Origin: Thaumarchaeota archaeon UBA223
Lineage (GTDB): Archaea; Thermoproteota; Nitrososphaeria; Nitrososphaerales; UBA57
Reading direction: 5' to 3'
Length of the DNA: 64,000 nt
NCBI GenBank assembly: GCA_002495905.1
Contig: DAHJ01000025.1
Location: forward strand, 21,995-85,994
The translations under genes were made by a program, and so were the position numbers. The notes beneath the pieces are model-generated. The model was not told where the DNA came from. It did no database searches and saw only the letters and a program-made list of their open reading frames with translations. This document shows positions 29,593 to 61,476 of the stretch, one piece after another. Position 1 is the stretch's first letter; each line of letters begins with the position of its first letter.

Positions 29593-29597
29593 TTGTA

Positions 29598-29673
29598 TGG
29601 GGCGAGGGAGATTTGAACTCCCGATCACTTGCTCCCAAAGCAAACATCTTAGACCAGACTAGACAACCGCCCC
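29598..29673 (-). tRNA. tRNA-Pro(UGG), intron-less
   Basis: Minus-strand read: GGGGCGG-TT-GTCT-AGTCTGGTCTA-AGAT-G-TTTGC-TTTGGGA-GCAAG-TGATC-GGGAG-TTCAAAT-CTCCC-TCGCCCC-A. 76 nt, no encoded CCA. Confidence 0.9.
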
Positions 29674-29775
29674 AATAACACATAATCATTAATATAAAAA
29701 AGGATATCGAGATTTGAAAGAATTAGGTCAAAATATGTTAAGCTTTATATCCAATTTTTATTTATATAGTATATC

Positions 29776-32215: not shown

Positions 32216-34618
32216 TTGGAAATTAATGATATTTTATCTGAAAATGTAATGAAGGTCTTGAAAGCAAGATATTTATTAAAATTCGAAGATGGTAGACAAG
32301 AAAGTCCAGATGAATTATTTCTAAGGGTTGCAGGAGCAATAGCAAGCGCAGATGAAGAATATCAAGATTTTGATAGTAAAGAATCAAAAGAAATATTTTA
32401 TAAAATGATGAAAAATTTCGAATTTTTGCCAAATTCGCCTACTTTGATGAATGCAGGAGCGCCATTAGGTCAATTATCAGCCTGTTTCGTATTACCTGTG
32501 GAAGATGAAACAAGCTCAATAATGGACGCAGTGAAGACACAAGCAATAGTACAGAAAACAGGAGGAGGAACAGGTTTTTCATTCTCAAAATTAAGACCTG
32601 AAGGAGATCAAGTTGGATCAACAGGTTCTGTAGCATCTGGACCCGTATCATTTATGCAATTATTTGATAAATGTACACAAGTGATTAAACAAGGAGGAAA
32701 AAGACGAGGGGCAAATATGGGAATAGTAAATATAGAACATCCTGATGTTTTAGAGTTCATTGAAATGAAAAGAAACAACATGAAACTTCCAGAAGAAGCA
32801 AAAATTATGAAAGAATTCAACGTATCAGTAGCAATAACTGATGATTTTATGAGCAGGTTAGAAAAGGAAGACTATCATAAATTTATCAATCCAAGAACAG
32901 GAGAAGAAGTTTTGAAATGTAACAAATGTAGAAAAAATGTTTTTCCAAAACAAAACCAAGCAGAGTGCAGTCTATGCGATGGGAAAGGAGAAAGAATAAA
33001 GGCTAAAGAATTATGGGGAAAGATTATTGATTGTGCATGGGAATGTGCAGATCCTGGATTAATTTTCATAGATAAAATAAACAACAGTAATTCAAATCCT
33101 GTAAGAGAACATTTCAAGATTGAATCAACAAACCCATGTGGAGAGGTACCGTTGTTACCAAATGAAAGTTGTAACTTAGGTTCGATAAATGTAGCGAAAT
33201 TTACAAATGAAGAAAATAATGATATTGATTGGGATAAACTTAGAGAGTGTACAAGAAATGCAATACATTTTCTTGATAACGTAGTTACAAAAAATCAATA
33301 TCCAACAAAAGAAATTGAAGAATTGTCACGTAACATGAGAAGACTAGGACTAGGAGTAATGGGATTAGCAGATTTATTGAGTAAATTAAAAATAAAATAT
33401 GGATCTGATGAATCATTTAGATTTTCAAGAAAGTTAATGAAATTTATTTCAGAAGTAGCATGGAAGATGTCTGAAGAATTAGCAGAGAATAGAGGAACAT
33501 TTCCATACTGGGACAAGAGTGATTTTGCAAAGATTGGAAGAAAAGTTAGAAACGTAAATTGTACAATAATTGCTCCTACAGGTTCAATAGGTACAATAGC
33601 AAATTGTTCTCCAGGAATAGAACCTCATTTTGCATTAGTATTCGTAAGACATTCTAGAATTAAAGAAAGAAGTGAAGAATTCGAGGAACTTCATTATTTG
33701 AATGAATCATTTGCGATAGCTCTAGAAGAACACAACATTAATCTCGATAAAGAAAAGATAAGCGAGATTTCTGCAAATGGAGGAAGTATTCAAAATCTAT
33801 CATGGATTCCAAGAGAAATAAAAGAAATGTTTCCAATTGCCGCTGATTTATCAGGAGAACAACATGTACTAATGCAATCAGCTTTTCAGGAATTTGTTGA
33901 TGATGGAGTAAGTAAAACAATCAACCTCGCAAATGAGGCTACAAAAGAAGATGTAAATAATTCTTATAGATTAGCTTATAATACTCATTGCAAAGGCATA
34001 ACAGTATATCGTGATGGTTGTTTAGATGTACAAGTATTGGAAACAGACAAAACAAAGAATTTAAGAGGAGATAATAAAGATAAACAATCTGCACATGTTT
34101 TACCAGGAGGATATAAGCGTCCTGAATATTTAGTAGGTAGAACTTATAGATTTACGTATACAAATAGTGGATTATTTATTACAATAAATAGAGATCAAGA
34201 AGGAAGACCAAGAGAAGTATTCATAGAAAGAGGCAAATCAGGCGATGAAGAAAAGGCAGCATATGAAGGTATGGGAAGACTAATCTCGATTGCATTGCAA
34301 TCCGATGTAGATGTAAAGGCAATAATTAAAACAATGCGAGGAATACAAACAAAGAATGTATCTTGGCATCAAACAAAAGGTACTAGCATACCAATTAGAT
34401 CAGTTCCAGATGCAGTTGCACATGCATTAGCTGATTCCATACATACAGAACCAGAAGTACCAATACCAGAAACAGAAGAAATAAAAAATGAATTATTAGA
34501 AATAACAGGATCTAGTTCAAATAACATGAGTAAATGTACTGCGTGTGGAGAAATGAGTTTAATTTATGCAGAAGGCTGCAGTAAATGTCTATCGTGTTCA
34601 TATTCCAGTTGTGGTTAG
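32216..34618 (+). CDS. nrdJ: adenosylcobalamin-dependent ribonucleotide reductase (class II)
   Basis: 800 aa. VLKARYLLK, PNSPTLMNAG, the SACFVLP loop, the active-site NPCGE and a C-terminal Cys-rich tail. TTG start in the track; ATG at 32249 (MKVLKARYLL) is a plausible true start. Confidence 0.93.
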   Translation: MEINDILSENVMKVLKARYLLKFEDGRQESPDELFLRVAGAIASADEEYQDFDSKESKEIFYKMMKNFEFLPNSPTLMNAGAPLGQLSACFVLPVEDETSSIMDAVKTQAIVQKTGGGTGFSFSKLRPEGDQVGSTGSVASGPVSFMQLFDKCTQVIKQGGKRRGANMGIVNIEHPDVLEFIEMKRNNMKLPEEAKIMKEFNVSVAITDDFMSRLEKEDYHKFINPRTGEEVLKCNKCRKNVFPKQNQAECSLCDGKGERIKAKELWGKIIDCAWECADPGLIFIDKINNSNSNPVREHFKIESTNPCGEVPLLPNESCNLGSINVAKFTNEENNDIDWDKLRECTRNAIHFLDNVVTKNQYPTKEIEELSRNMRRLGLGVMGLADLLSKLKIKYGSDESFRFSRKLMKFISEVAWKMSEELAENRGTFPYWDKSDFAKIGRKVRNVNCTIIAPTGSIGTIANCSPGIEPHFALVFVRHSRIKERSEEFEELHYLNESFAIALEEHNINLDKEKISEISANGGSIQNLSWIPREIKEMFPIAADLSGEQHVLMQSAFQEFVDDGVSKTINLANEATKEDVNNSYRLAYNTHCKGITVYRDGCLDVQVLETDKTKNLRGDNKDKQSAHVLPGGYKRPEYLVGRTYRFTYTNSGLFITINRDQEGRPREVFIERGKSGDEEKAAYEGMGRLISIALQSDVDVKAIIKTMRGIQTKNVSWHQTKGTSIPIRSVPDAVAHALADSIHTEPEVPIPETEEIKNELLEITGSSSNNMSKCTACGEMSLIYAEGCSKCLSCSYSSCG

Positions 34619-44520: not shown

Positions 44521-46782
44521 TTATGCTGTAGCTTGGCGAGATCTAGTGAAGAGTACACCAGAAACGACGACTAGAATTACACCTAATCCAATTGCAATAT
44601 ATGAAATTGGACTAATTGTTTCTACTTCGACTTCTTCAGTGACTATTACTTCACGGACTTCTACCTCACGGCTGATACTTTCTGGTAATTCATCAGGTAA
44701 ACCAAAGGCCATTATAGCTCCAGGAACAGAGCCTCTTAATGGTGGGTTTTGGCTAGTTAGACCACGTCCTCCAAATGATTGTAGGAGTAGAGTCTTACCA
44801 TTAGAATCTTGTCCAATACTTGGTTGAGTATCTAATGCTGAACCAAGATTGAATGTATGTAGAAGTTCACCGTTGTCGGTTGCAACTGCACGAAGCTTAC
44901 CATCGAAACCATTCCAGTAGACTACGCCACCAGATGAAATCATTCCACCTCGGTGTGCAACTGTATCTACAAAGAATTCCCATTCAACTGCACCAGTTCT
45001 TGCATTGATTGCAGTAACTGAGTGGTTTAATTGAGGTGGGAATGGTGCTTCAGAGTTTTTGTTGTTAATGAATCCACCATAGAAACTACCAAATCTTGAT
45101 TCTTGTGGAAGAATCTCTAAGAAGAGAGGTTCATTCTTACAAGATACATAGACATTGTTTCCATCGAATGCCATATCATTTTCAGCACAGCCTGATCCAT
45201 TTGGACTTTGCCAGATGTATTCAGTTGATGGATAATGTTGCCATGGTTTGTTCATGTCAGCTTCAACTCGTGGATCTAAGAAGAACCAGTCGTTGTTTTC
45301 GTCAAGACCGTCAATACCAAGTGCTTCAGAGTGCAATACACCTCGTCCTCGTTCACCATTAGTTGGTCCAGCACGATTATCACATTCTGCATTACAGTAG
45401 TATTTTGTGAATCTTACACCAGGAACTTCAGTGATCCATAATACTTCACCAGTATTTGCATCAAATGCATGAACGTGTCCTTGTTTACATTGTTTCATAA
45501 CAACTCTGCGTCCATCGATTTCTGCAAGTTGTGTATTCCAGGCACAGTCCATGTCCCAAAGGTCTTTAGTAGTACTTTGGAAGTACCATGCTAAGTCACC
45601 TGTCTTACTATCAAGTCCAACAATAGCTGAACCGAATAGACGTGGACCACGGGTATATGTGTGGTTAAAGTCAGGACCTGGTTGTGCAGTTCCGAAGAAG
45701 AGTTTTCCATTTTCTTCGTCAACTACAATCTGTCCCCAGATATTACTTACACCTGCATTGAATGGCATACCAGTCTTTTCATTATAAGTACCTGGATTAC
45801 CAGCCCAATCCCATCTTAGGATATCTTCTGGGACATCACAAGCTTGGATACCTTCGATATAACCAACATCACAAGTGTCAACTAACCATTGACCCCATGC
45901 GGCATATTCGTCAGGGAATAATTCACCGTTAGGTGGTTGATAAAAGAATCTCCAATTAAGGTGCTCATCGGTTGTTGCGTCAATGTTACAAGGGAAACTT
46001 GTACAGGCGCCTAAGTCATATGCAGCTACATATGCACGGCCACCATAGCTTCCTTCCATGTGTCCGCCGACTGCTACAATAATTTGGTTATTGGAACGAT
46101 CAACAACAGGAGCATGTGATCCTTGTGCGTTATACAAACCAGAGTTTGTTTCAACATTTCTACAATGTTGGAATAGAGTGAATACTTCGTCGCCGTTTTC
46201 AGCATCTACTGCTTTGATTGTACAACCAAAGGAGTTTAGCCAAAGTAAACCTTTACCATTCAATTCCCAATAGTTCATTGAATGAGTATGGGCGGCTAGA
46301 GAGTATACAGGTAAACCTGGAGGATTAAGTCCACGATTGTCTGCGACAGATGGACCAATTATATCAGGGTCATCACCGTCTGCAGTTCTTTCACTATACC
46401 AATTCATTGATCCATCAACCGAATCGATTGAGAAGATTGTCTGATAGTTGGTTGTGTAGTAGACATTACCGTCGACAACTAATGGAGGTGCGATACCACC
46501 AGTACCACAAAAGGTCATTGATGAACAACCTATTGAATCTGCATCAGGGATTGGAAATACCCATTGCAATTGAGCAAGGTGTACATTCTCTGATGTTAAT
46601 TGTGTTTGTGGGTTAAAGTTGTGTCCCCAGGAATTTGCATTAATGAATTCCCAGTTTCTCTCTGCTCTTGTAGAACCAAGTGCAGGAGTAACGTTTTGTG
46701 CACTAACCATTGGGGTTAGGAACAAAGATGCTGCAATTAATAGTGCAGCAACTAGGATACTTACGTATACACGTCGAGTCAT
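44521..46782 (-). CDS. PQQ-type quinoprotein dehydrogenase homologue, paralogue A (signal peptide, beta-propeller, acidic linker, C-terminal TM anchor)
   Basis: 753 aa. NWEFINANSWGHNFNPQTQLTSENVHLAQLQWVFP matches the quinoprotein N-terminal signature. Repeated W-containing blades. KDLWDMDCAWN. Tail ISPISYIAIGLGVILVVVSGVLFTRSRQATA. Confidence 0.8.
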   Translation of the reverse strand: MTRRVYVSILVAALLIAASLFLTPMVSAQNVTPALGSTRAERNWEFINANSWGHNFNPQTQLTSENVHLAQLQWVFPIPDADSIGCSSMTFCGTGGIAPPLVVDGNVYYTTNYQTIFSIDSVDGSMNWYSERTADGDDPDIIGPSVADNRGLNPPGLPVYSLAAHTHSMNYWELNGKGLLWLNSFGCTIKAVDAENGDEVFTLFQHCRNVETNSGLYNAQGSHAPVVDRSNNQIIVAVGGHMEGSYGGRAYVAAYDLGACTSFPCNIDATTDEHLNWRFFYQPPNGELFPDEYAAWGQWLVDTCDVGYIEGIQACDVPEDILRWDWAGNPGTYNEKTGMPFNAGVSNIWGQIVVDEENGKLFFGTAQPGPDFNHTYTRGPRLFGSAIVGLDSKTGDLAWYFQSTTKDLWDMDCAWNTQLAEIDGRRVVMKQCKQGHVHAFDANTGEVLWITEVPGVRFTKYYCNAECDNRAGPTNGERGRGVLHSEALGIDGLDENNDWFFLDPRVEADMNKPWQHYPSTEYIWQSPNGSGCAENDMAFDGNNVYVSCKNEPLFLEILPQESRFGSFYGGFINNKNSEAPFPPQLNHSVTAINARTGAVEWEFFVDTVAHRGGMISSGGVVYWNGFDGKLRAVATDNGELLHTFNLGSALDTQPSIGQDSNGKTLLLQSFGGRGLTSQNPPLRGSVPGAIMAFGLPDELPESISREVEVREVIVTEEVEVETISPISYIAIGLGVILVVVSGVLFTRSRQATA

Positions 46783-46925: not shown

Positions 46926-47468
46926 CTATTGCCAATTAAGATTAATTACAAGAAATTCAAATTGATCAAAAGTAAATGGAAAAGTTTCCTCAAAATAATA
47001 AACAGAACTCGATGGAATGCTTGAAATGATAACAGATTCTGTACGAACAGGTATAGCGTCACAACCACAGTCATTCAATATCCACCAAGTAACTTCTACC
47101 TCAATGTCGCTGGCATTTTTTAGTCCAAAATTAATAATCTGACCACTAACAACTGAATAAGATCTACCGTCAATTTCAATTTCATTATTTTGAAATTGTT
47201 GATTAATCGTAAGATTAGCATGAGTAATTAAATTATTTTCAAGAATAAGAGTAAGATTAGAAAGTTGCGTAGAAAGTAATTGATTTTCAGTTATCAAGGA
47301 CTCGATTTGAACAAGGTAATTTTTATTAGAATTCTCAATCTCTTCTAGTTCGGATTCAAGTTGATTGTTATTCGTAATAAAAAAAAATATTAAAAGAATA
47401 GAACTAATCAGTAGGAACAAATATATTATTCCGTACAGACGATTCACAAGTAATCTATAATCATACAA
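46926..47468 (-). CDS. N-terminally anchored coiled-coil protein, hypothetical
   Basis: 180 aa. One TM helix, a Leu/Asn/Gln-rich coiled coil, and a C-terminal beta-rich domain. TTG start in the track. Confidence 0.45.
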   Translation of the reverse strand: MYDYRLLVNRLYGIIYLFLLISSILLIFFFITNNNQLESELEEIENSNKNYLVQIESLITENQLLSTQLSNLTLILENNLITHANLTINQQFQNNEIEIDGRSYSVVSGQIINFGLKNASDIEVEVTWWILNDCGCDAIPVRTESVIISSIPSSSVYYFEETFPFTFDQFEFLVINLNWQ

Positions 47469-49142: not shown

Positions 49143-51329
49143 ATGAGAAAAACAATAATTTTGATGTTGATATTTTTATTAACTACTTCAATTATATTTC
49201 AATCTAATAATATCAACACAGAAGCAACAAACAATATTGATATTAAAAATATTGAAAGAGAAAAAAGAAATTGGGAGTTTGTAAATCATGATGCATTTGC
49301 TACAAATTATTCGCCACAAGATCAGATCAACACAGAAAATGTTCACATGTTAGAATTGAAATGGACATTTCCATTTCCACCTGCTACAGAATTTTTAAAA
49401 TATCAAGAAGGAGGGATAGCATTCGAAGGTGCAATAACACCGCCATTAATTATAGATGGGGAAGTATTTGTTGCCTCTAATATGAGAAACGTATACTCTT
49501 TTGAAGCTAATTCAGGAGATATGAATTGGATAAATATTTACGAACATAATTGGAATAAAGCAAAACAAGAATTACCTGAAGTTGCAGGAGGAGCACCGCA
49601 CATACATGGTTTACAATATATTGATGGAAACTTATTCACTAGTACTTTAAACTGTGCAGTAGACGCAATTGATGCGAAATCGGGAGAAATATCATTCAGT
49701 ATTCAGGAAATTTGTAAGAACGTTGAAGGTAATTATTATTCTTGGCCTATGTATGAAGGAATTGGAAAATACGGATCGCCTTCTCATCCAGGTCCAATTT
49801 ATGAAGATGAAAATATCTTAGTAGTTGCAATAACAGGAGCTACAGCATCATGGGGAGGAGGAAGAGCATTTATTGATGGATATAATCTCAATGTCAATCC
49901 GCCCGAAAGATTATGGAGGAAATTTCTTGCACCTCCTGGAGAAGGAGATCCAGAATGGGCATTAAGAGAATGTGATAAAGGATGGTTCTTTTCTTATCCA
50001 GAATGGAAAGAATCAGGAAGAATGGGAATCCCTTGTAACGAGGTTCCTAGGGAGAATTTGATAAACGATTGGGGAGTTCCTAAACACTACACGTCTTCAG
50101 TAGCAGCGATTTGGGGACAAATGGCGTTGGATCAGGAAACTGGAATAGTGTACTTTGGAACTGGAAACCAAGGAGGATGGCCAAATCAGACGCATGTAAC
50201 TGGCCCTAATTTATACTCCAGTGCAACGCTAGCAGTTGATGTAAAATCAGGAGAAATTATTTGGTGGTATCAACAAGTAGCAAGAGACATGGTTGAAGGA
50301 GATACATCATGGAACACAGTACTTACAGAATTGAATATCAATGGGGAAAAGAAAAAAGCTATAATAAAATATTCTGTAACGGGTCTTTTATGGGCACTTG
50401 ATGCAGCTACGGGAGAACCATTGTGGATATATGAATCACCAATACTAAAAAGTAGAACTGATTCAGACGGAGTAATCAGAGGCAGGACGTCAGGACATCC
50501 TTGCATAGGATGTGATCCGAGAACACAAGACGGATACTGGAATGATGTAATGAGTCATTACGACATGCAGGAAAAGAAGTGGTTGAATTATCCTTCGAAA
50601 GATTGGTTTTATTGGATTCCTGCAAGAGCTGGAGAAGCAGATATTGCATTAAATACAGATTTAGAAAGAATTTATGTTCCTGTTGCGGGTGGTGTAGATA
50701 AAGCAATAAAAGCAGATAAATATGGAACACTAGGAGTAAGACCTGGACAAGATTACTACATTGATACTTTATCAAAAAATGTAACATTGTATAGTTTAGA
50801 TGCAAACACAGGAGAAGAAATATGGAGTCATTTTATTGATGGAGTAGCTTACAGAGGAGGAGTTATGACGAGCGGAGGAATTGTATTTTTACCTGTTGCA
50901 GATGGAAATCTATATATGTTCAATGCAGAAAATGGAGAAATAATAGATAAAATGTTTCTAGGTAATTCATTAGTTGTTTTACCTACAATTGGTTATACCA
51001 AAGAAGGAGAAGCAAGATTATTTGTAATTAGTGGCGGAAGAGGAGCATATGCAATAGGAGGGATAACGAAACAAAATGTACCAGGAGCTATATATTCATT
51101 CGGTTTACCTGAAGGTTACATTCAACAAGAAGAGAGCATAGAAGAAAGGGTAATTGAAGAAGTTATCGAAGAAAAAATTGAGATAATTGAACAGGAAGAG
51201 TCAGAATCACAGATAAACGAAGAAACAAAAGAACAAGAAAATCAAATAGAACAAGAGAATTATACGATATATTATTTATTGGGAATAATTTTACTAATTG
51301 TTTTAACAGTAATAATTAGAAGACGGTAA
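49143..51329 (+). CDS. PQQ-type quinoprotein dehydrogenase homologue, paralogue B
   Basis: 728 aa. NWEFVNHDAFATNYSPQDQINTENVHMLELKWTFPFP. Propeller repeats. Acidic IEE-rich linker. Tail YYLLGIILLIVLTVIIRRR. AAGGAG lies 9 nt upstream of the ATG, and the gene starts 17 nt after elp3. Confidence 0.8.
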   Translation: MRKTIILMLIFLLTTSIIFQSNNINTEATNNIDIKNIEREKRNWEFVNHDAFATNYSPQDQINTENVHMLELKWTFPFPPATEFLKYQEGGIAFEGAITPPLIIDGEVFVASNMRNVYSFEANSGDMNWINIYEHNWNKAKQELPEVAGGAPHIHGLQYIDGNLFTSTLNCAVDAIDAKSGEISFSIQEICKNVEGNYYSWPMYEGIGKYGSPSHPGPIYEDENILVVAITGATASWGGGRAFIDGYNLNVNPPERLWRKFLAPPGEGDPEWALRECDKGWFFSYPEWKESGRMGIPCNEVPRENLINDWGVPKHYTSSVAAIWGQMALDQETGIVYFGTGNQGGWPNQTHVTGPNLYSSATLAVDVKSGEIIWWYQQVARDMVEGDTSWNTVLTELNINGEKKKAIIKYSVTGLLWALDAATGEPLWIYESPILKSRTDSDGVIRGRTSGHPCIGCDPRTQDGYWNDVMSHYDMQEKKWLNYPSKDWFYWIPARAGEADIALNTDLERIYVPVAGGVDKAIKADKYGTLGVRPGQDYYIDTLSKNVTLYSLDANTGEEIWSHFIDGVAYRGGVMTSGGIVFLPVADGNLYMFNAENGEIIDKMFLGNSLVVLPTIGYTKEGEARLFVISGGRGAYAIGGITKQNVPGAIYSFGLPEGYIQQEESIEERVIEEVIEEKIEIIEQEESESQINEETKEQENQIEQENYTIYYLLGIILLIVLTVIIRRR
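49857..50611 (+). repeat. mosaic tract in PQQ-B: five blocks 100 percent identical to PQQ-C at constant offset +2160
   Basis: Line-by-line comparison. Blocks 49857-49918, 49943-50089, 50112-50180, 50343-50438 and 50487-50611 equal 52017-52078, 52103-52249, 52272-52340, 52503-52598 and 52647-52771. The intervening segments are strongly divergent. Confidence 0.9.
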
Positions 51330-51335
51330 TTAAGA

Positions 51336-53411
51336 GTGTATAGAAATACAAAGATAATATTTTCAATAATATTTACTGTAATATTATTTCATTCAATTAC
51401 AAATCCAATAATTGAAGGTGTATTCTCAGATGAGAACAATAAAGACAATTGGGAACAAATTAACAATAATGTAAGAGGAACAAATTATTCACCACAAAAT
51501 CAAATCAATGCAGATAATGCTCATATGTTGGAATTGAAATGGGCATTTCCAATACCGCCAGTACAAGAATTCAATGAACAAGGAGTCGCCATAACAGAGG
51601 GATCAATGACTCCGCCTTTGATAATTAATGGCACCGTATATTTTACAACCAACATGAGAGATACTTACGCAATAGATTCGGTAACTGGAAGTTTAAAATG
51701 GATAAGTGTATGGGATTTTGATTGGCAAGAAGGTTATAGAAAATTACCAATAACAGGTGGCGCACTACATGTTCATGGTTTGAATTTAATTAATGGAAAA
51801 TTATTTCCAAGTACAGTTGCATGTTCTATTTTAGCAATAGATCCAGAAAACGGAGAAATTGATTTTGAATTGAATGATACTTGCAGAAATATTGAAGGAA
51901 ATGAGTATAATTGGGATTCTTATACGGGGCCAGGATTATGTGGATTATCTTCGCATCCAGGAATAGAATATGAAAACATCTATGTAACACAAATATGTGG
52001 AGCAGATTCTAATTGGGGAGGAAGAGCATTTATTGATGGATATAATCTCAATGTCAATCCGCCCGAAAGATTATGGAGAACATTCTTATCACCCCCATCA
52101 AGAGGAGATCCAGAATGGGCATTAAGAGAATGTGATAAAGGATGGTTCTTTTCTTATCCAGAATGGAAAGAATCAGGAAGAATGGGAATCCCTTGTAACG
52201 AGGTTCCTAGGGAGAATTTGATAAACGATTGGGGAGTTCCTAAACACTATAATTCAGCAGTGGGTTTGCTATGGGGACAAATGGCGTTGGATCAGGAAAC
52301 TGGAATAGTGTACTTTGGAACTGGAAACCAAGGAGGATGGGTAAATAACACTTACGCAATAGGTCCAAATTTATTTGCGTCTTCAATAGTTGCAATGAAT
52401 GTAACAAATGGAGAATTAATTTGGTGGTATCAAACTGTGCCAAGAGATATGGTACAAGCAGATACTGCTTGGAATACAGTACTAACTGAATTGACGATAA
52501 ACGGGGAAAAGAAAAAAGCTATAATAAAATATTCTGTAACGGGTCTTTTATGGGCACTTGATGCAGCTACGGGAGAACCATTGTGGATATATGAATCAAG
52601 TCTTTTAGAAAGTAGAGTAGGTGAAGACGGTATTCCAAGAGGTAGAACGTCAGGACATCCTTGCATAGGATGTGATCCGAGAACACAAGACGGATACTGG
52701 AATGATGTAATGAGTCATTACGACATGCAGGAAAAGAAGTGGTTGAATTATCCTTCGAAAGATTGGTTTTACATTATACCATTAAGAGCTGGAGAAGCAG
52801 ATATTGCATATAATGAAAAAGAAGACATAGTTATATTGCCTTTAAGTCTCGGATGGGATGCAAGTGCAAAAGCAGGGAATCATAAAGGAATAGGAGTACC
52901 TCCAGGAGAATATAATCTGAATTATCCAAAACAAAAACAGAACACAACAATATTAGGAATAGATGCAAATACAGGAGAAGAAATATGGAGTTATTTTATT
53001 GATGGAGTAGCTTACAGAGGAGGAATAATTGCAACAGAAGATTTGGCAATAATTCCAGCGGCAGATGGAAATTTGTACATATTAAATGGATTAACAGGAG
53101 AACTGTTGCATAGAATATTTCTCAATACGCCATTGACAACTCAACCAACAATAGGTAAGAATTCAGATGGCGAATTTCAGATATATGTTATAAATGGAGG
53201 TAGAGGAAGGCAAGAAGTAGGAGGATTAACACATAATCAAATACCTGGATCTGTCATAGCATTGGGATTATCAGAACAGGTAGAAATAGAGGATATTGTT
53301 AAAGAAGATGCTGAAGAAATCGAATCAGCGATATCAGATTCAACTTTTCTTGGAATTATCTTAATTATTATGTTAATTATGGCAGTAATATTATTGCTAA
53401 GAAGAAGGTAA
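51336..53411 (+). CDS. PQQ-type quinoprotein dehydrogenase homologue, paralogue C
   Basis: 691 aa, GTG start 6 nt after the B stop. NWEQINNNVRGTNYSPQNQINADNAHMLELKWAFPIP. Tail FLGIILIIMLIMAVILLLRRR. Confidence 0.8.
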   Translation: MYRNTKIIFSIIFTVILFHSITNPIIEGVFSDENNKDNWEQINNNVRGTNYSPQNQINADNAHMLELKWAFPIPPVQEFNEQGVAITEGSMTPPLIINGTVYFTTNMRDTYAIDSVTGSLKWISVWDFDWQEGYRKLPITGGALHVHGLNLINGKLFPSTVACSILAIDPENGEIDFELNDTCRNIEGNEYNWDSYTGPGLCGLSSHPGIEYENIYVTQICGADSNWGGRAFIDGYNLNVNPPERLWRTFLSPPSRGDPEWALRECDKGWFFSYPEWKESGRMGIPCNEVPRENLINDWGVPKHYNSAVGLLWGQMALDQETGIVYFGTGNQGGWVNNTYAIGPNLFASSIVAMNVTNGELIWWYQTVPRDMVQADTAWNTVLTELTINGEKKKAIIKYSVTGLLWALDAATGEPLWIYESSLLESRVGEDGIPRGRTSGHPCIGCDPRTQDGYWNDVMSHYDMQEKKWLNYPSKDWFYIIPLRAGEADIAYNEKEDIVILPLSLGWDASAKAGNHKGIGVPPGEYNLNYPKQKQNTTILGIDANTGEEIWSYFIDGVAYRGGIIATEDLAIIPAADGNLYILNGLTGELLHRIFLNTPLTTQPTIGKNSDGEFQIYVINGGRGRQEVGGLTHNQIPGSVIALGLSEQVEIEDIVKEDAEEIESAISDSTFLGIILIIMLIMAVILLLRRR
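52017..52771 (+). repeat. mosaic tract in PQQ-C, partner of 49857-50611
   Basis: See the partner feature. Identical blocks of 62, 147, 69, 96 and 125 nt, with no indels between them. Confidence 0.9.
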
Positions 53412-53461: not shown

Positions 53462-55450
53462 GTGCAGAAAGTAAGCATATTAATTTTTATTTTAATTATT
53501 TCAGCCTTAACTTCATTGAATACTGAAACATTATTTTCAAGTGCGATTGATGATAACGGATTTGATTCAATTGCGCCGAATTATGATTATCGTGCTACAG
53601 GATTCAATCCACAAACTCAAATAAATAAAGAAAATGTCAATAATCTTGAATTAAAATGGGTACACGCATGGCCCTTGCCCGAATCAATAGATGGGATTGA
53701 GCCAAGAGTTGGGTCTATTGCAAATTCCATAATTGTAGATGGAATAGTATACAATAGAATGGAAGATTTGAGAATTTCAGCAATTGATGCAAAAACTGGA
53801 GAAAGTATTTGGTCATTTCAAGCAGACCCATATCTAGTAAATATAGAAATTGCAAAAAGAGAATTACCCGTTAATCTAGATTTTTATCCCTCATTATCTA
53901 GTCATGCACACAGTTTTTCTTTTGCAGAAAATAAAATATTTGCACCATGGCCAAATTGTCAAGTTTTTGGTCTCAATGCAAAAACTGGTGAAATTGAATT
54001 TAGATTAAAGACGCCAACTTGTAAAGATTTAGAAGGAAATGAAGGTTTATTCAAAGGTTTACAATCTTCAGGTCCTGTGTTTGACACTGTCAATCGTATT
54101 TTAATTTACGGAACAGGAGGAAGAGAAGCTGTAGAAGGAGGAAGAGGTGCATTTAGAGGATATGATCTTGATTCAGGAGAATTATTATGGACATTTTATT
54201 TGATGCCCCCGCAAGATGTGGGAGATCCAGAATGGACTATAAGAGTAGCCGATAAAGGTTGGATTCAAGGAATAAGAGCATCCAATATTCCAGAAGATAT
54301 TTTAAGAAATGACTGGGGAAGATGTCCAGAAAATTGTGGATTTGGAAAAGGAGATATGGGAATAGGATGGGGTCAATGGGCAGTAGATGAAGATAATGGA
54401 ATTGCATATTTAGCGACAGGTAATCCATCGCCAAGTTGGAATGCAACATACAGACCAGGGCCAAACGTTTTTAGTAATTCAGTTTTAGCGATAGAAACTA
54501 AAACAGGGAATTTACTGTGGTGGCATCAGATTGTAGCACATGATTTAGGAGACTTAGATTGTTCTTGGAATACAGTATTAGCAGAGATAGATGGAACAAA
54601 AACAGTTTTCAAATTATGTAAAGGAGCTTTTCTTTATGCAATGAATGCAGAAACTGGAGAATTATTATGGAGTACAGATTATCATCCACATGTTAAACGA
54701 GGATCAATAGGTCCAGATCCAAATTTTGATTTGGCATTGGATCCATTGAATAAAGATGATATGAATAAACCATGGGTGTCATATCCTGGCAATGAACCAA
54801 ACTGGAGAAAAGAATCAGGAGGAGCAGAGTCAGATGTTACATTGGCATATGGAAAAGTATTTTCTACAACTTATCATAAATGGTCATTACAAAAGATTAC
54901 ATCAGTAGAGCCATCAATGCGAGATTCATGGGGAAGAATTTCAATGTATTCAGATCAAGAACTTGCATCGAATGCGACAGTATGGGCACATGATGCAAAA
55001 ACTGGAGAACTGATTTGGAAATATGACATAGACAAAGTAGGAATAAGAGGTGGAGTAACTGCTTCAGGAGAGATGATTTGGTTTTGTGACACTGATGGAG
55101 TAATAAGAGCTTTAGATGAGGAAAATGGAAATGTGTTGTGGGAAAGATCTCAAGGTCATCAATGTCCAGTACAACCATCATTTGGAGCTGATAAAGATGG
55201 AAATATCAAGATATTTTCTTTAATAGGGTCAGGAGGAATATTAGGAAGATCAGAACCAATACCTGGGGCGTTACTTGCATATGGATTATCGGGAAACACA
55301 GAAGCAAATGTAAAAAAAGATGTAGAAGTGATTGTTGAAACAGAGATAATAACAGAAGAAATCATAAGTCCAGTTTCATATTTGATACTTGGATTTTCAT
55401 TATTATTGATAATTACTTCGTTATTGATTTTGAGAAAGTCTAAAAATTAA
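53462..55450 (+). CDS. PQQ-type quinoprotein dehydrogenase homologue, paralogue D
   Basis: 662 aa, GTG start. YDYRATGFNPQTQINKENVNNLELKWVHAWP. HDLGDLDCSWN. Tail ISPVSYLILGFSLLLIITSLLILRKSKN. Confidence 0.78.
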   Translation: MQKVSILIFILIISALTSLNTETLFSSAIDDNGFDSIAPNYDYRATGFNPQTQINKENVNNLELKWVHAWPLPESIDGIEPRVGSIANSIIVDGIVYNRMEDLRISAIDAKTGESIWSFQADPYLVNIEIAKRELPVNLDFYPSLSSHAHSFSFAENKIFAPWPNCQVFGLNAKTGEIEFRLKTPTCKDLEGNEGLFKGLQSSGPVFDTVNRILIYGTGGREAVEGGRGAFRGYDLDSGELLWTFYLMPPQDVGDPEWTIRVADKGWIQGIRASNIPEDILRNDWGRCPENCGFGKGDMGIGWGQWAVDEDNGIAYLATGNPSPSWNATYRPGPNVFSNSVLAIETKTGNLLWWHQIVAHDLGDLDCSWNTVLAEIDGTKTVFKLCKGAFLYAMNAETGELLWSTDYHPHVKRGSIGPDPNFDLALDPLNKDDMNKPWVSYPGNEPNWRKESGGAESDVTLAYGKVFSTTYHKWSLQKITSVEPSMRDSWGRISMYSDQELASNATVWAHDAKTGELIWKYDIDKVGIRGGVTASGEMIWFCDTDGVIRALDEENGNVLWERSQGHQCPVQPSFGADKDGNIKIFSLIGSGGILGRSEPIPGALLAYGLSGNTEANVKKDVEVIVETEIITEEIISPVSYLILGFSLLLIITSLLILRKSKN

Positions 55451-55455: not shown

Positions 55456-56223
55456 TTAAGGTCGATCAAAGAGTCCAAGTTCTTCGTATGAAATTACTAC
55501 ATTTCTATCTAGTACGCTGAAATCTCCATATTTATACCATTTTAATGGAAATACAGTACCTTCTGCAACTACTTCAGTTTCAAAATTCAAGAAATCCCAT
55601 CGATCGTCAATCATAAGCCATTCACCGTCAGAGAATTCCCATACAGAAATTACATTAACTTCCATACTAAATTCACCAATCAGTTTTCCTTCGCCGTGAT
55701 TATAAAGAGAATGAACTACAGTAGCTTGATCTCCAACAAATGTAACATCATAACTAACGATATTAAGTTCGATTGACATGGTATTTCCAAGAATTGTAGA
55801 AATCAGAATTCGTATATTGTTATATCCTTTGTAACTTCCTGCAAAAGCACCTGCTTGTCCAGTCCATTCAGCATAGGTAGCTTTATCATTAGAATAATAC
55901 TTTAGAGTTTCTCGACTATCTCTGGAACCAAAAGCTTTATGGAAGTCGTCAATTGTAGTTCTAAGTAATTCTTTTTGTGGATGATCACCACTAATAACTT
56001 CTTCAGCTTGAACAACTACTTCAACTTGAACAGGTTCTGCTTCTCCTTCGCGAGGTTCTTCTTGAACAGCAACTTCAACAACTCTAACAGGTTCAGTTAC
56101 AATTTCATTATCAGGAAAAACAGGTAATGTAGGATAAGTAATAATTCCAACGATTCCGACTATTCCTATAAGGAAAAAAACTGCTGCAATCTTAGTTCTA
56201 TCTGATTTAGTTAATGTTGCCAT
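55456..56223 (-). CDS. N-terminally anchored NTF2/SnoaL-like fold protein
   Basis: 255 aa. TM helix, acidic E/V/P linker, then about 150 aa with an NTF2-like pattern ending ISVWEFSDGEWLMIDDRWDF. Its start lies 2 nt after the PQQ-E stop. Confidence 0.55.
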   Translation of the reverse strand: MATLTKSDRTKIAAVFFLIGIVGIVGIITYPTLPVFPDNEIVTEPVRVVEVAVQEEPREGEAEPVQVEVVVQAEEVISGDHPQKELLRTTIDDFHKAFGSRDSRETLKYYSNDKATYAEWTGQAGAFAGSYKGYNNIRILISTILGNTMSIELNIVSYDVTFVGDQATVVHSLYNHGEGKLIGEFSMEVNVISVWEFSDGEWLMIDDRWDFLNFETEVVAEGTVFPLKWYKYGDFSVLDRNVVISYEELGLFDRP

Positions 56224-56225
56224 AA

Positions 56226-58325
56226 CTAACCACTAGCGCCAAATTTCCAGTTTCCACTTGTAATAAACATAGTAGCAGATATTGCTAGTATTATAAATGA
56301 TATAATTACCATAAGATAAGACAATGGACTGATTACTGTTTCGGTTTTAATTGTTTCAATTTCAGTAACTACCTCTTGAACTTGAGATGGAGCAGCTGGA
56401 GCAGCTGGATCTGCAGGAACAACAACTACCTCTTCGGAAATAGCAACAGATGATTCATCTCCTAATCCTAATGCAATCATTGCACCTGGAATTCCTGTTT
56501 GTCCCCAAGATGCAATAGACATACCGCCTGTTTGTACGAATACTTTCATATCTCCTTGACTATCTGCACCAAGTGTAGCTTGTGTCCAAAGACCAATTCC
56601 AAATGAACGTTTTGAAAGAAGTTCGCCAGTTTCAGAGTTCAATAGATACAGCCATCCATCACCGGATGGAACATATACAACTCCACCAGATACAGTTAAA
56701 CCACCTCTAAAACCTGCGCCGTCAATGAAGAATCTCCAAAGTTCTTCTCCGGTATCAGTATCTAAAGCATAAATTGACGAGTTAGTAGGATGACTTGTTG
56801 GAAGCATGACTAATTGATTGCCAAAGTCTTCTGGGTATTCCGGTGAAACAACAGTTACTGGCATGTTATAAGATCCCAAGTATAATCTTTCGCCATCATA
56901 GGCCATATCGGCTTCAAGGATACCAGCAAAATTTGCACTAGTGAATGATGTTTCTCCTACATGAGAAGTAGGCCATGCACGCTGTAAATCATCAATATTT
57001 TTTGGGTCTGGATAGGACATTCCAGGTTGAGGAAGCCAAGCATCTGGAGGATGATATATCCAGAATGGTTCTCCTGTAGCCGCATCGAGTGCGTACATAA
57101 ATCCATTCTTACATCCTTTGAATATAGCTTTCTTGCCTTCTACTTCACCAAGAATTGCATTCCAAGCACAATCGTAATCCCACATATCATGAGGTACGGT
57201 TTGATACCACCAGACAAACTCACCAGTTTTTGCATCAAGTGCTACGATAGCACTGCCATAAAGATTAACTCCAGGTCTTCTTAATGCATTAGGATATGGA
57301 CCACTTTCGCCAGTGCCAAGATAAACAAGACCAGTTTCTTGATCAATTAAATAATGACCCCAAACAGTAGCAACAGAACTAGCAGTATGAACCATTCCAC
57401 GTGAACTTTGTGGATTAATCCAGTCATTTTTAAGATTTTCTTCTGGAACTTCGTTACATGGAACTCCCAATCTACCAGTGTCTAACCACTCAGGAAATGA
57501 AAAGAAATAACCTATATTACAATGATGTAAAGCCCAATCTGGATCTCCTTCAGCAGGTGGCATCAAAAAGGTTTGCCAAATTCGTTTTGGATTATCCATA
57601 TCACTTACATCATAACCTGCAATGAATGAACGTCCTCCGTTACCTGAAGATCCCATAACAGGAACAACCATTATATCTTCATAGAATTGTGGAGGATGAG
57701 TTCCAATACTTGCATAGTAACCTTGATTTCCCCAAGCTTGAGCTTCTTCCTCAGTTCCACACATTTCCATTACGGAGAAAACAACATCTCCTAAAAGAGA
57801 ATCATGTCCGTCAACTTGACATGATTGAAGACTTGGTATAATTATTCCTTTATCATCATAATAATTTACTGCATGAGTGTGAGGTAACATTCCTTTAACA
57901 TGAGGATAGGTTTGTTGTAAAATATCATTATCGTATGCAACAACATTATTCCAGATTAAACTTCCACTAGCAGAATCGACCGCAACTAAAGCTCTTTGGT
58001 TTGTAGCAGAATAAGCTATACCGTCAACAATAAGAACTGGAGAACCTGAACCTGCATATGTCTTAGCGCCACCTATGGTTGGATAAGTAGTTGGAGGATA
58101 AGGATAAATCCATTTCATTTCTAAATTGTCGGCATTATCTCGATTAATTATTGATTGAGGATTATGACTACGGCCGTATTGACCATAATTAATCATGTCC
58201 CAATTGGACATTTCTCGAGTCAATTCTTGGCCAGAAGCAGTAATAGGATTATCGTCAAAATTTAGAGGAAATGCAATAGATGCAATTAATAAAATGAATA
58301 ATACGAATAGTTGAATTTGTCTCAC
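56226..58325 (-). CDS. PQQ-type quinoprotein dehydrogenase homologue, paralogue E
   Basis: 699 aa, GTG start. NWDMINYGQYGRSHNPQSIINRDNADNLEMKWIYPYP. HDMWDYDCAWN. Tail ISPLSYLMVIISFIILAISATMFITSGNWKFGASG. Confidence 0.8.
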   Translation of the reverse strand: MRQIQLFVLFILLIASIAFPLNFDDNPITASGQELTREMSNWDMINYGQYGRSHNPQSIINRDNADNLEMKWIYPYPPTTYPTIGGAKTYAGSGSPVLIVDGIAYSATNQRALVAVDSASGSLIWNNVVAYDNDILQQTYPHVKGMLPHTHAVNYYDDKGIIIPSLQSCQVDGHDSLLGDVVFSVMEMCGTEEEAQAWGNQGYYASIGTHPPQFYEDIMVVPVMGSSGNGGRSFIAGYDVSDMDNPKRIWQTFLMPPAEGDPDWALHHCNIGYFFSFPEWLDTGRLGVPCNEVPEENLKNDWINPQSSRGMVHTASSVATVWGHYLIDQETGLVYLGTGESGPYPNALRRPGVNLYGSAIVALDAKTGEFVWWYQTVPHDMWDYDCAWNAILGEVEGKKAIFKGCKNGFMYALDAATGEPFWIYHPPDAWLPQPGMSYPDPKNIDDLQRAWPTSHVGETSFTSANFAGILEADMAYDGERLYLGSYNMPVTVVSPEYPEDFGNQLVMLPTSHPTNSSIYALDTDTGEELWRFFIDGAGFRGGLTVSGGVVYVPSGDGWLYLLNSETGELLSKRSFGIGLWTQATLGADSQGDMKVFVQTGGMSIASWGQTGIPGAMIALGLGDESSVAISEEVVVVPADPAAPAAPSQVQEVVTEIETIKTETVISPLSYLMVIISFIILAISATMFITSGNWKFGASG

Positions 58326-58469: not shown

Positions 58470-59120
58470 TTGGAGTCAAAAAAAGGAAATTTTAATTTTC
58501 CAATCATTATAATTATTTTTGCAGTAGCAATTGGAATACTATTTTTATTCAATACTCCAGCACCTGTAGAACTAAATGTAGAAGAAAATATTGAAGATAT
58601 AGAGGAAAAAGAAGAAAATGTAAAAGAAGAAGATGTAAAAGTAGAAGAAATTGAAATAAATCCAGATATTCCAGTTGTTGAACCTGAGTTGCCAGAAATA
58701 GTAGAAGAAATAATACAAGAAGAAGTAAGAAGAATTAATGAAGATTGTCCATTTGGTAAAGAATTAAGAAGTACACCTGAGAATCCAATGACTTATACTT
58801 GTAAATTAATAACTCTCGAAAATGGGGGACAGTTTGGAGATGTAAGATTGTCAATAAATAATGGAGAGTTTGAGCAGCCAGAGATTCAAGTAAAAAAAGG
58901 TACTACAGTGACATGGGTGATGAGAGATAAAACAGCAGGTGCTGGAGGAGATGTTCCATATCATCAAGTATCTTCAATAGACGGGTTATTTGATTCTGGA
59001 GAATTATTTGTATCAGGGGAGAATAAATTCAGTTATGTATTTGACGAAGTTGGAGAATTCGAATATAATTGTCCGCCACATCCTTGGATGGTTGGCAAAA
59101 TTATTGTCGTAGATGAATAA
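58470..59120 (+). CDS. membrane-tethered type-1 copper protein (amicyanin-like cupredoxin), second copy
   Basis: 216 aa. N-terminal TM helix, long acidic linker, and a cupredoxin with YHQ...YNCPPHPWMVGKIIVVDE (Cys-x2-His-x2-Met). Confidence 0.82.
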   Translation: MESKKGNFNFPIIIIIFAVAIGILFLFNTPAPVELNVEENIEDIEEKEENVKEEDVKVEEIEINPDIPVVEPELPEIVEEIIQEEVRRINEDCPFGKELRSTPENPMTYTCKLITLENGGQFGDVRLSINNGEFEQPEIQVKKGTTVTWVMRDKTAGAGGDVPYHQVSSIDGLFDSGELFVSGENKFSYVFDEVGEFEYNCPPHPWMVGKIIVVDE

Positions 59121-59220: not shown

Positions 59221-61476
59221 CTAAGTAGATCCTGCCTTTGAGCGTTGGAATAGAACGCCAGCTACTACAATAAGAACTACACCAAGTCCAATAGCTACAT
59301 AAGATACTGGGCTGATTACTTCTTCAGTAGTAACAACTTCGACTTCTTTTTCAACGACTGTTTCTACAGGTACTTCGACTTCAACGACGACTTCTTTTTC
59401 TACTTCAACTTCGACTACGTTTTCAATTTCGACTACTCTTTCGACTTCGACTTCGACTTCTTCAATAATAGTCTCAACATCTGGTAGTACGTCTGGTAGA
59501 CCAAGTGCGACGAGTGAACCCTCAGTTGCAGTGTTTCCATATACGAAACCACCACCACCACCTACGTGGATAAAGATCTTGTGTTTACCGTCAGAGTCTG
59601 CGCCAATTGTTGGCATTACACTAACAGGTACACCGAAGAATCTCTTGTGAACTAGTTCACCAGTGTTTGCATCGAATATGTATAGATTTCCGTCACCGGC
59701 ATATCCATATACAGCTGAACCTGTGGCCATTAATCCACCACGGAAACCTACATCAGGAATGAATGCACTCCAGTCAGCTTCGCCTGTGTTGACGTTAACT
59801 GCATAGATTGTAGTATTAACAGGATGACCGCTTGCTTGGATGTTACTAGCTTGGTTGCCAAAGTCGACAACGTTACCAGTTGTTGTCCAACGTGGATCAT
59901 TGTAATTTGCAACGAATATGTATTTGCCGTTGTAAGCCATATCAGCTTCGAGTGCTCCTGCTAACCATGGATTCCAGAGTGCTGGTGATGGATCAGGTGC
60001 GTTCAACCAATCTTTGTTCATGTGTTCAAATGTCATACGACAACATGCGTCAGGATGGTTTGGATCACCATCAGGTCCAACTCCATAGTTTGTACCAGGT
60101 GCAGTTCTCCAAGTTGTTGGAGCTTCCCATACCCATACAGGTTCACCAGTGGCTGCATTCAATGCATATGCCATTCCGTTCTTACAACCTTTGATTAAGA
60201 CTTTAGTTCCTTGAGCTTTGGCCATTATGCCACCCCATGAACAGTCCCAATCCCATAAGTCGTGAGGATTAGAATGGAACCACCATTGGATTTTACCAGT
60301 ATCTACTTTGAGTGCAACGATAGCACTACCAAAGAGGTTAGGTCCAAATCTGTATGATGCATTACTATAAGGTCCTACATCTCCAGTTCCGATATATACT
60401 AAACCAAGTTCCTCGTCAATTGGGAAATTACCCCAAACTACTGACATTGCGCTAGCAGTGTGGACTTCTCCGAAATGAGGAGTTCCTTCTTTCATGTTAA
60501 TCCAGTCGTTTTCAACTGCTTCGTCTGGAACTTCAGTACAGTTTACTGCAAGTTTTCCAGTGTCAAAGAAGTCAGGTGCAGAGAAGTACCAACCATTGCC
60601 GTTTGCTTCTGTACAAGCGTCAATAGCCCAGTTTTTCTGTGTACCACGATTATCTGGCATTAACCAAGTATTCCATAATTCAACAGGGTTACTTGGATCA
60701 GTCATGTCAAATGCTTTAACAGAAGATCTTCCTCCTCCGCCACTAGCACCCATGATTGGCCAAATCATTGTATTACCGCTAAATGCAGGTGGGTGATTTG
60801 ATTGTCCTGAAATTCTACCTTTGCTTCCTAAAGTTCCGATGATTCCTTCATCAGGATTTCCGTATTCAGCTACGGTACCACAAAGGTCTTCAACTCCAAG
60901 TTTCCATGCCAAGCTACCATCAGCTGCATTCCATCCGCTAAGTAGACAAGGTTGACTACTGGTAATTAACCATCCGCTATCACCAAACTGTCTATAATAG
61001 TTTATTGCGTGAGTATGTCCCCATGCACTTTGGAAGAATGGGTATTCTGCAGTAATAGCAGGTCCATCCCATAAGTTTGCTGGTTCATCTGTAAAGTAAA
61101 CTTCTTCACCTGTTTTTGCATCAACAGCGTGTATTGCACGTGAGTTTTTACCTACATATGCAACACCGTCGACGATAAGAACTGGTGCGCTTGAACCAGC
61201 TTGGGAATTACCCCAAGAGAAGTCATTGGTTGGATAAGGAAACATCCATTTCATTTCCAGCCATTGAGCATTTTCATTATTTATTTCGAATTGTGGGCTA
61301 TAACTACCGCCAGTAGGCTGATAATTAATAAATTCCCAATTACCAGTTACAACTTTTGGTACACCACCACCGCCTGGAGGACCTCCAGGGTCAAATGCAT
61401 TAGCAACTAATGCAAATGAAGATAGTGCCAAAATTAAAGCAACTAGTAACCCAACTATAGTTAAGTGTCGAGTCAT
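59221..61476 (-). CDS. PQQ-type quinoprotein dehydrogenase homologue, paralogue F
   Basis: 751 aa. NWEFINYQPTGGSYSPQFEINNENAQWLEMKWMFPYP. HDLWDWDCSWG. A very long (E/V)n linker. Tail ISPVSYVAIGLGVVLIVVAGVLFQRSKAGST. Confidence 0.8.
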   Translation of the reverse strand: MTRHLTIVGLLVALILALSSFALVANAFDPGGPPGGGGVPKVVTGNWEFINYQPTGGSYSPQFEINNENAQWLEMKWMFPYPTNDFSWGNSQAGSSAPVLIVDGVAYVGKNSRAIHAVDAKTGEEVYFTDEPANLWDGPAITAEYPFFQSAWGHTHAINYYRQFGDSGWLITSSQPCLLSGWNAADGSLAWKLGVEDLCGTVAEYGNPDEGIIGTLGSKGRISGQSNHPPAFSGNTMIWPIMGASGGGGRSSVKAFDMTDPSNPVELWNTWLMPDNRGTQKNWAIDACTEANGNGWYFSAPDFFDTGKLAVNCTEVPDEAVENDWINMKEGTPHFGEVHTASAMSVVWGNFPIDEELGLVYIGTGDVGPYSNASYRFGPNLFGSAIVALKVDTGKIQWWFHSNPHDLWDWDCSWGGIMAKAQGTKVLIKGCKNGMAYALNAATGEPVWVWEAPTTWRTAPGTNYGVGPDGDPNHPDACCRMTFEHMNKDWLNAPDPSPALWNPWLAGALEADMAYNGKYIFVANYNDPRWTTTGNVVDFGNQASNIQASGHPVNTTIYAVNVNTGEADWSAFIPDVGFRGGLMATGSAVYGYAGDGNLYIFDANTGELVHKRFFGVPVSVMPTIGADSDGKHKIFIHVGGGGGFVYGNTATEGSLVALGLPDVLPDVETIIEEVEVEVERVVEIENVVEVEVEKEVVVEVEVPVETVVEKEVEVVTTEEVISPVSYVAIGLGVVLIVVAGVLFQRSKAGST

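Follow-up and report, generated by a model that had tools for sequence, protein, structure and literature searches.

The DNA considered here is a window of 64,000 nucleotides (nt) from Thaumarchaeota archaeon UBA223 (assembly GCA_002495905.1, contig DAHJ01000025.1, positions 21,995 to 85,994 of the forward strand), in which two adjacent genes on the + strand, gene B (49143-51329, 728 amino acids, PF01011 E = 9e-41) and its tandem paralog gene C (51336-53411, 691 amino acids, PF01011 E = 2.5e-43), encode pyrroloquinoline quinone (PQQ)-dependent dehydrogenases. The central parts of B and C form a mosaic in which perfectly identical nucleotide blocks alternate with divergent segments, called islands or patches here and numbered 1 to 6. 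We consider with fairly high confidence that this mosaic is best explained by recurrent gene conversion between B and C in the central propeller region, during which gene-specific islands have been retained.

Comparison of the window with itself at a constant offset of +2160 reproduces to the base the exact B/C blocks of 62, 147, 69, 96, 125, and 26 nt that had been reported in an earlier note on this DNA, and the four peptides quoted there are the translations of blocks 2 to 5. All features of the mosaic lie on the + strand. Block 1 (49857-49918, 62 nt, 100% identical to C 52017-52078) abuts at its left edge a one-codon insertion/deletion (indel; SWGGGRAF in B, NW-GGRAF in C), and this left edge of the mosaic at 49857 is common to four genomes, i.e., the window and the related loci L002, L003, and L020. 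Island 1 (49919-49942, 24 nt, nucleotide divergence 50%) reads KFLAPPGEG in B and TFLSPPSRG in C. Block 2 (49943-50089, 147 nt, 100% identical to C 52103-52249) encodes a Cys-containing helical insertion common to B, C, and the more distant paralogs E and F, and leads to island 2 (50090-50111, 22 nt, divergence 55%; TSSVAAI in B, NSAVGLL in C), which is located directly before a WG motif. Block 3 (50112-50180, 69 nt, 100% identical to C 52272-52340) holds a GTGN motif, and island 3 (50181-50342, 162 nt, divergence 31%, synonymous divergence dS 1.14) includes the position equivalent to the catalytic Asp of related enzymes, with the codon for Glu385 of B at 50295-50297 and a Gln codon at the counterpart in C (52455-52457). 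Block 4 (50343-50438, 96 nt, 100% identical to C 52503-52598) is followed by island 4 (50439-50486, 48 nt, divergence 44%; PILKSRTDSDGVIRGR in B, SLLESRVGEDGIPRGR in C), and block 5 (50487-50611, 125 nt, 100% identical to C 52647-52771), which encodes a loop insertion specific for B and C (HPCIGCD...), by the very short island 5 (50612-50623, 12 nt; WIPA in B, IIPL in C). Block 6 (50624-50649, 26 nt, 100% identical to C 52784-52809) precedes island 6 (50650-50797, 148 nt, divergence 53%). The near-identical tract of about 66 nt described for 50798-50863, here block 7, does exist and agrees with C 52961-53026 in 63 of 66 positions, including exact runs of 21 and 32 nt, and encodes DANTGEEIWSxFIDGVAYRGG; its offset is +2163 rather than +2160, because B is one codon short compared with C in the preceding divergent segment. 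Similarly, the divergent segments had been described as equal in length between the two genes, which holds exactly for patches 1 to 5 and fails for patch 6, where the one-codon indel is found. The counterpart mosaic in C extends from 52017 to 53026 and carries C-type alleles at islands 2 to 6.

The identity of the blocks is highly significant. Whereas B and C differ in their flanks with a nonsynonymous divergence (dN) of 0.47 and a dS of 1.24, and in patches 1 to 5 with dN 0.36 and dS 1.54, both values are zero over the 172 codons of the blocks. Where B and C encode the same amino acid by a degenerate codon, the codon is identical in 156 of 156 cases in the blocks versus 56% in the flanks, and if codons are treated as independent, the chance of such an outcome at the flank rate is 0.56^156, i.e., about 1e-39. 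Polymorphic sites in a codon alignment of 18 sequences were subjected to a Sawyer/GENECONV-type permutation test. In 10,000 permutations, neither the observed maximum fragment nor the observed sum of squares was ever attained, which was also true of third codon positions alone, and five observed fragments are longer than the largest permuted one. Between orthologs from different genomes the same blocks show dS values of 1.0-1.7, and no other pair among the six PF01011 paralogs of the window (A to F) shares an exact stretch of at least 18 nt, the next k-mer size tested, the largest one found being 16 nt. The blocks are thus not ultra-conserved in all members of the family. Such ultra-conservation, which the earlier note had named as a finding that would speak against conversion, was discarded as a cause of their identity. 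As a separate observation, the GC content of third codon positions is 0.30 in the converted blocks (49857-50649) versus 0.17-0.20 in the flanks (49233-49856 and 50864-51100), with Fisher p = 0.0025 for B and 0.023 for C and the same direction in 18 of 18 genes examined, a difference for which either GC-biased gene conversion or constraints on codon choice in conserved segments could account.

The alignment covered nine genomes in which both genes are complete (window, L001-L004, L007, L008, L020, and L021), and the mosaic recurs across this clade. In the flanks, the nucleotide distance between B and C is 0.36-0.44 and that between orthologs 0.15-0.21. In the central blocks, the B-C distance across genomes is 0.11-0.20, equal to the B-B and C-C distances, whereas the corresponding values in the flanks are 0.43 and 0.2. 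In trees of the flanks and of islands 2, 3, 5, and 6, the B genes and the C genes form two cleanly separated clades, the separation being less clean for islands 1 and 4, and in trees of blocks 2, 4, and 5 each B pairs with the C of its own genome. Blocks 4, 5, and 6 are found again, with almost unchanged edges, in distant genomes whose blocks 1 to 3 have diverged by 11-27%; block 6 is exact between B and C in five of the nine genomes, and island 5 separates by gene in eight of the nine, although its flanking blocks are identical. This grouping of blocks by genome and of flanks and islands by gene is the hallmark of gene conversion that is restricted to the central region and has recurred independently of lineage. 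Recent patchy conversion between the tandem copies, as initially proposed, is therefore supported by a block dS of zero next to values above 1 in flanks and patches, by the genome-wise clustering of the blocks, and by the permutation test. A second, minor zone of raised similarity between B and C is found in the N-terminal part (49263-49372, motif NYSPQNQIN..NVHMLELKW), with an identity of 66-80% in the window and with exact B-C blocks of 20-53 nt elsewhere (around 49314-49366 in L020 and 49299-49372 in L001 and L003); it is possibly an occasional second conversion site.

The islands represent two discrete, clade-conserved alleles, a B type and a C type, and not hypervariable loops. For island 3, the B type is characterized by WPNQT...RDMVEGD(T/S)SWN and the C type by WVNNT...RDMVQ(A/G)D(T/A)AWN. 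Gene B of the window is nearer to the B reference set at six of six islands, at island 3 only marginally (0.29 versus 0.33), and gene C is nearer to the C set at islands 2 to 6. Single-copy outgroup genes from freshwater and groundwater Thaumarchaeota possess B-type motifs wherever they can be scored, and since the B type occurs in these single-copy relatives, the B-type alleles are probably ancestral. The islands are old and under purifying constraint: their dN/dS is about 0.23, and their dS is saturated like that of the flanks. The suggestion that strong diversifying selection acts on the intervening loops is not borne out by such values, nor by the conservation of two types throughout the clade. 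Among the island mismatches, transversions (69) outnumber transitions (35), and the 104 mismatches are spread evenly over the four bases (in B: A 27, C 28, G 22, and T 27).

The AlphaFold model of B (predicted local distance difference test score, pLDDT, 80; predicted template-modeling score, pTM, 0.82) shows an 8-bladed propeller with an acidic linker and a helix C-terminal to it, consistent with an architecture consisting of an N-terminal signal or anchor, the propeller, the acidic linker, and a C-terminal transmembrane helix. In a Foldseek search, the best matches of this model in the PDB are XoxF proteins, methanol dehydrogenases, and alcohol dehydrogenases, with 6dam (XoxF) at E = 1e-33 and a target-normalized template-modeling score of 0.76, although the identity of B to solved quinoprotein structures is only 16-21%. 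In a HMMER alignment with the quinohemoprotein alcohol dehydrogenase 1KB0, Asn342 of B, which is situated in the GN motif of block 3 and is nearly invariant among 63 homologs, aligns with Asn263, and Glu385 of island 3 aligns with Asp308. We take Asn263 of 1KB0 to be a metal ligand and Asp308 (Asp303 in MxaF) to be the catalytic and metal-binding Asp. According to alignments of paralogs and orthologs, the position equivalent to this Asp is occupied by Glu in B and by Gln in C. The corresponding "WDxD" motif (50286-50303 in B, 52446-52463 in C) reads E-G-D in B, Q-A-D in C, and D-x-D in paralogs A, D, E, and F. The lanthanide-type Asp two residues past the catalytic position (Asp387 in B) is kept and is invariant in the alignment of 63 sequences. 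With the islands placed relative to the active site by sequence alignment and secondary structure only, island 3, the largest island retained, would contain an active-site difference. There is no CC dipeptide in B or C, i.e., the vicinal Cys-Cys of true methanol dehydrogenases is lacking, as it is in all quinoproteins of the heterotrophic marine Thaumarchaeota (HMT; Aylward and Santoro, 2020; PMC7300363). B resembles XoxF, PedH, ExaF, and the HMT quinoproteins in its 8-bladed propeller, the Asn of the GN motif, and the retained Asp387, and B and C, like the HMT quinoproteins, belong to a multi-copy, membrane-anchored set encoded beside a cupredoxin gene. In contrast to the lanthanide-dependent PQQ dehydrogenases, the catalytic Asp is replaced by Glu or Gln in B and C and the vicinal Cys-Cys is missing.

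With regard to a mechanism, short stretches of the central region (about amino acids 239-575) are homogenized repeatedly and in a non-reciprocal manner, probably by homologous recombination between B and C, and are left identical or nearly so within a genome, whereas the N- and C-terminal thirds and the six central islands keep their ancient gene-specific sequence. The partners in recombination might be the two tandem genes of one chromosome or their copies on sister chromosomes, with heteroduplex forming in the conserved blocks. Islands might survive because a divergence of 31-55% blocks extension of the heteroduplex or because short-patch repair restores them, and/or because converted variants that lose one island type are selected against. 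The conversion tracts would be short and discontinuous, like those obtained experimentally in Sulfolobus.

That the barrier is purely mechanistic, with no selection involved, is possible, if somewhat doubtful, and would not exclude recurrent conversion as such. A divergence of 31-55% would then stop branch migration or trigger heteroduplex rejection or short-patch restoration, and the mosaic would be a neutral by-product of where sequence is conserved. The blocks do fall for the most part on protein segments with conserved or identical sequence in B and C, the left boundary of the mosaic lies at an indel beyond which divergence is 42%, uncoordinated short-patch excision gives discontinuous tracts in Sulfolobus (PMC3367456), and mixed island combinations are common in databases. 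However, islands 1, 2, and 5 comprise only 12-24 nt and lie, on at least one side, beside 62-147 nt of perfect identity, so that they should be co-converted easily, and yet B and C are still separated from each other at islands 2 and 5 throughout the clade, with a B-B distance of only 0.04 for island 5. For this reason a contribution of selection to the survival of the islands is favored. Two discrete alleles with low dN/dS that have outlasted the saturation of dS, and the probable active-site difference in island 3, also speak against a merely mechanical origin. Going further, one might imagine that the mosaic is a stable, selected architecture, in which conversion throughout the clade keeps the central scaffold of B and C identical, selection protects small active-site islands, and the "shuffled" variants of the databases are assembly artifacts. 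We regard this as rather unlikely; if it were true, an identical scaffold might serve, for example, a shared interface, partner, assembly pathway, or heteromer, and the pair would possess two chemistries, with Glu versus Gln at the position of the catalytic base. Far less credible is a single extended conversion of recent date, after which strong diversifying selection would have driven substrate-facing loops apart again. The islands are indeed partly loops and lie near active-site elements, but an island dS of 1.54, saturated like that of the flanks, cannot arise by divergence after conversion next to blocks with a dS of zero; further evidence against it consists of the dN/dS of 0.23, the conservation of each island type among genomes, and the excess of transversions, the last of which is what old, saturated divergence should show. 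It is more improbable still that some other function, for instance an embedded RNA or a regulatory element, preserves the nucleotide sequence of the blocks, or that they are target or template of a diversity-generating retroelement. No evidence in support of such a function was found, and the blocks that are identical between B and C are saturated with synonymous differences between orthologs. The even distribution of island mismatches over the four bases is not the adenine-specific pattern of a diversity-generating retroelement, which was thus discarded as a candidate.

A different kind of explanation supposes that the blocks of the window, or the phasing of its islands, were made by the assembler through collapse of paralogs or mixing of strains. 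The locus clearly misleads assemblers, and the worry about assembly expressed in the earlier note is still justified for the locus, as other public assemblies with an identical backbone differ from the window only in the patches, and many contigs break within the repeat or fuse B to C. L054, a 306-kb TARA scaffold from sample SAMEA2619907, is 100% identical to the window over 10.1 kb except for 96 mismatches, and L055, a contig of 109 kb from JGI 3300020478 on which the B protein is exactly that of the window, is 100% identical over 8.2 kb except for 84 mismatches. All these mismatches fall within island coordinates, where the allele of one paralog stands in place of that of the other, yielding B-C "exact tracts" of 755 nt in L054 and 669 nt in L055 (the counterparts of window 49143-53411 are L054 1808-6076, L055 3001-7269, and, for L053, 4001-8269). 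Since the islands are of equal length in B and C and set between shared blocks, the island-only differences of L054 and L055 are most simply interpreted as assembler collapse of equal-length alternative paths; alternatively, they are a real, very recent conversion polymorphism. Exact B-C tracts of 743-992 nt in L001, L002, and L003 and of 81 plus 662 nt in L020 had been considered giant recent conversions, but this reading was withdrawn because L031 and L001, identical in the blocks and adjacent flank compared, differ in the islands, and because L054 and L055 differ from the window in the islands only. Assembler collapse is the simpler explanation for these long tracts as well, with a real polymorphism as the less simple one. 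At least 13 related contigs from metagenomes or metagenome-assembled genomes (MAGs) end inside the B/C repeat. L006 (8872-8926) and L019 (7935-8011) terminate exactly in B/C-shared blocks of 55 and 77 nt, which are k-mer lengths common in assemblers; further contigs ending in the repeat are L010-L012, L023, L027, L031-L034, L037, and L043. L022 (1384-3353), L024 (1928-3841), and L026 (977-2881) each have just one fused gene, the product of which starts as B and ends as C, with gene D directly after it in L024 and L026, and in L025, apparently of the same lineage as L026 judging from an equal identity of the B N-terminus to the window, B and C are separate. Such fusions are due either to an assembly that skipped one copy of the repeat or to a real deletion by unequal crossing-over within the homogenized part. 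The repeat thus breaks, fuses, or homogenizes the locus in many public metagenome assemblies and MAGs, which are unreliable at this place, and counts of PQQ-dehydrogenase "families," phylogenies, and protein clusters at 90% identity in this clade likely contain chimeras.

For the window itself, an assembly artifact is nevertheless quite unlikely. An assembler cannot equalize sequences that have diverged by 7-40%, so that a collapse could hide only a few single-nucleotide polymorphisms (SNPs). The window contains both alleles of every island, which must hence have been present in the reads, whereas artifacts elsewhere lose one of them, and the chance of obtaining the phylogenetically expected phasing at all islands is about (1/2)^5. 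The suspected chimera is at odds with the recurrence of the same arrangement in L004, L008, and L021, whose blocks have partly diverged, and, except for one C-like motif in island 4 of B, in L007. Because their blocks have diverged enough, the phasing of L004, L008, and L021 is unambiguous with regard to assembly. On the fosmid KM3_90_H07, a single cloned molecule that encodes AIF20592.1 and its neighbor as the two proteins, B has only B-type and C only C-type islands at the protein level, and the blocks of the two proteins are identical except for two residues. L053, a strain from sample SAMEA2622822 with a backbone 98.5% identical to that of the window, differs from it otherwise essentially only inside the islands of B and C, where the allele of one paralog stands in for that of the other, and keeps a C-type island 3 with about 1% SNPs, which indicates that this allele belongs to the lineage.

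Several observations weigh against recurrent conversion with protected islands, or limit what can be concluded from the window. Island 1 of C is ambiguous and not clearly of the C type. Many mixed island combinations occur among 107 database homologs, including clusters of 37-62 members; should these be genuine, protection of the islands is not strict and the argument for selection loses weight. Among 120 homologs for which cluster sizes were considered, mixed patterns are likewise found in large clusters, and clusters at 90% identity can themselves mix patterns. L031 and L001 are identical in the blocks and in the adjacent flank compared and possess different island alleles, which could be a real polymorphism. 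Paths with a similarity of about 95% or more are merged by some assemblers, so that the true identity of the blocks could lie anywhere between about 95% and 100%; a few hidden SNPs would leave the conclusion unchanged, because dS exceeds 1 next door. Finally, short reads alone cannot phase islands across identical blocks, and the phasing in the window rests on the comparative evidence given above.

B and C are two of six PF01011 paralogs that a profile search detects as a cluster in the window, with bit scores of 140.6 and 149.1 for the pair at a curated cut-off of 26.7. The other PF01011 PQQ dehydrogenases are A (44521-46782, - strand), D (53462-55450, + strand), E (56226-58325, - strand), and F (59221-61476, - strand). 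In pairwise alignments, the proteins B and C are 60% identical overall, and every other pair of paralogs is 31-42% identical. An Elp3 gene is encoded upstream of B. Homologs and syntenic loci of B and C come from MAGs and metagenomes of marine Thaumarchaeota/Nitrososphaerales, and for this heterotrophic marine lineage numerous PQQ dehydrogenases have been described, the genes of which are reported to be among the most highly expressed in their organisms (Aylward and Santoro, 2020). B and C are old tandem duplicates coding for membrane-anchored PQQ-dependent dehydrogenases in a heterotrophic marine thaumarchaeon. Between E and F, a gene for a cupredoxin of the plastocyanin/azurin family (PF00127) is located at 58470-59120 (+ strand); in L001-L004 the same place is taken by a gene of comparable size, for which a Copper-bind match is on record in L001, L003, and L004. 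This cupredoxin is a candidate electron acceptor for the dehydrogenases, and an acceptor of the cupredoxin type has been suggested for such enzymes in general terms (PMC7300363). Two further genes of the cluster, at 55456-56223 (- strand, 255 amino acids) and 46926-47468 (- strand, 180 amino acids), encode proteins without Pfam match, for which similar-sized counterparts exist at equivalent positions in related loci; the former lies directly downstream of E, and its counterpart in L004 has a faint SnoaL_2 match.

Elsewhere in the window, two ribonucleotide reductase genes are adjacent to each other at 29776-31863 and 32216-34618 (both + strand). One product, NrdD-like and annotated as the anaerobic type (PF13597), has a helix-turn-helix at its N-terminus and an ATP-cone, and the other consists of a Ribonuc_red_lgC barrel and a TSCPD domain. 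An anaerobic-type ribonucleotide reductase is surprising for an archaeon presumed to be aerobic and pelagic. The sole tRNA detected in the window is a tRNA-Pro (TGG) at 29597-29674 (- strand).

The locus offers a clear example from nature of gene conversion that recurs on a fine scale in an uncultured lineage of archaea, and it points to those parts of near-twin quinoproteins that stay different, including the position of the catalytic base, which is a concrete target for biochemistry. Small islands of divergence at function-determining positions in a homogenized background are familiar from the L/M opsins of primates and from the theory of neofunctionalization under conversion. B and C resemble these opsins in possessing small divergent islands within a homogenized background; they differ in that selection on the islands of B and C is putative, the functional difference between Glu and Gln being read from an alignment alone. 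In a search of the literature for gene conversion in PQQ or XoxF genes, none of the papers listed combines both subjects. The account of the HMT quinoproteins (PMC7300363) does not mention conversion or recombination of these PQQ genes, a follow-up of 2026 (PMC13374868) does not mention gene conversion, and the catalog of recurrent concerted evolution in prokaryotes (Wang and Chen, 2018; PMC6053082) mentions neither quinoproteins nor Thaumarchaeota.

In Sulfolobus acidocaldarius, heteroduplex mismatches are resolved individually and in an uncoordinated manner, so that short DNA of moderate divergence gives rise to patchwork recombinants (Mao and Grogan, 2012; PMC3367456). Such discontinuous short-patch tracts are a plausible mechanism for the mosaic of blocks and islands in B and C, although the Sulfolobus data stem from experimental transformation of a hyperthermophile, whereas the pattern described here is deduced from natural sequences of a mesophilic, uncultured lineage. 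The closest parallel is provided by mtrA-1 and mtrA-2, adjacent archaeal paralogs with domain-restricted, long-lasting conversion (Wang et al., 2015; PMC4632066). As in B and C, neighboring old duplicates have been homogenized in one part of the gene, repeatedly and in separate lineages, while the rest has diverged, and the converted part is closer to the paralog of the same genome than to the ortholog. In contrast to mtrA, the converted region of B and C is a fine mosaic in which conserved gene-specific islands separate seven blocks of 26-147 nt. The B/C mosaic is thus a known process, conversion between paralogs, in a new gene family and with an unusually fine structure of blocks and islands.

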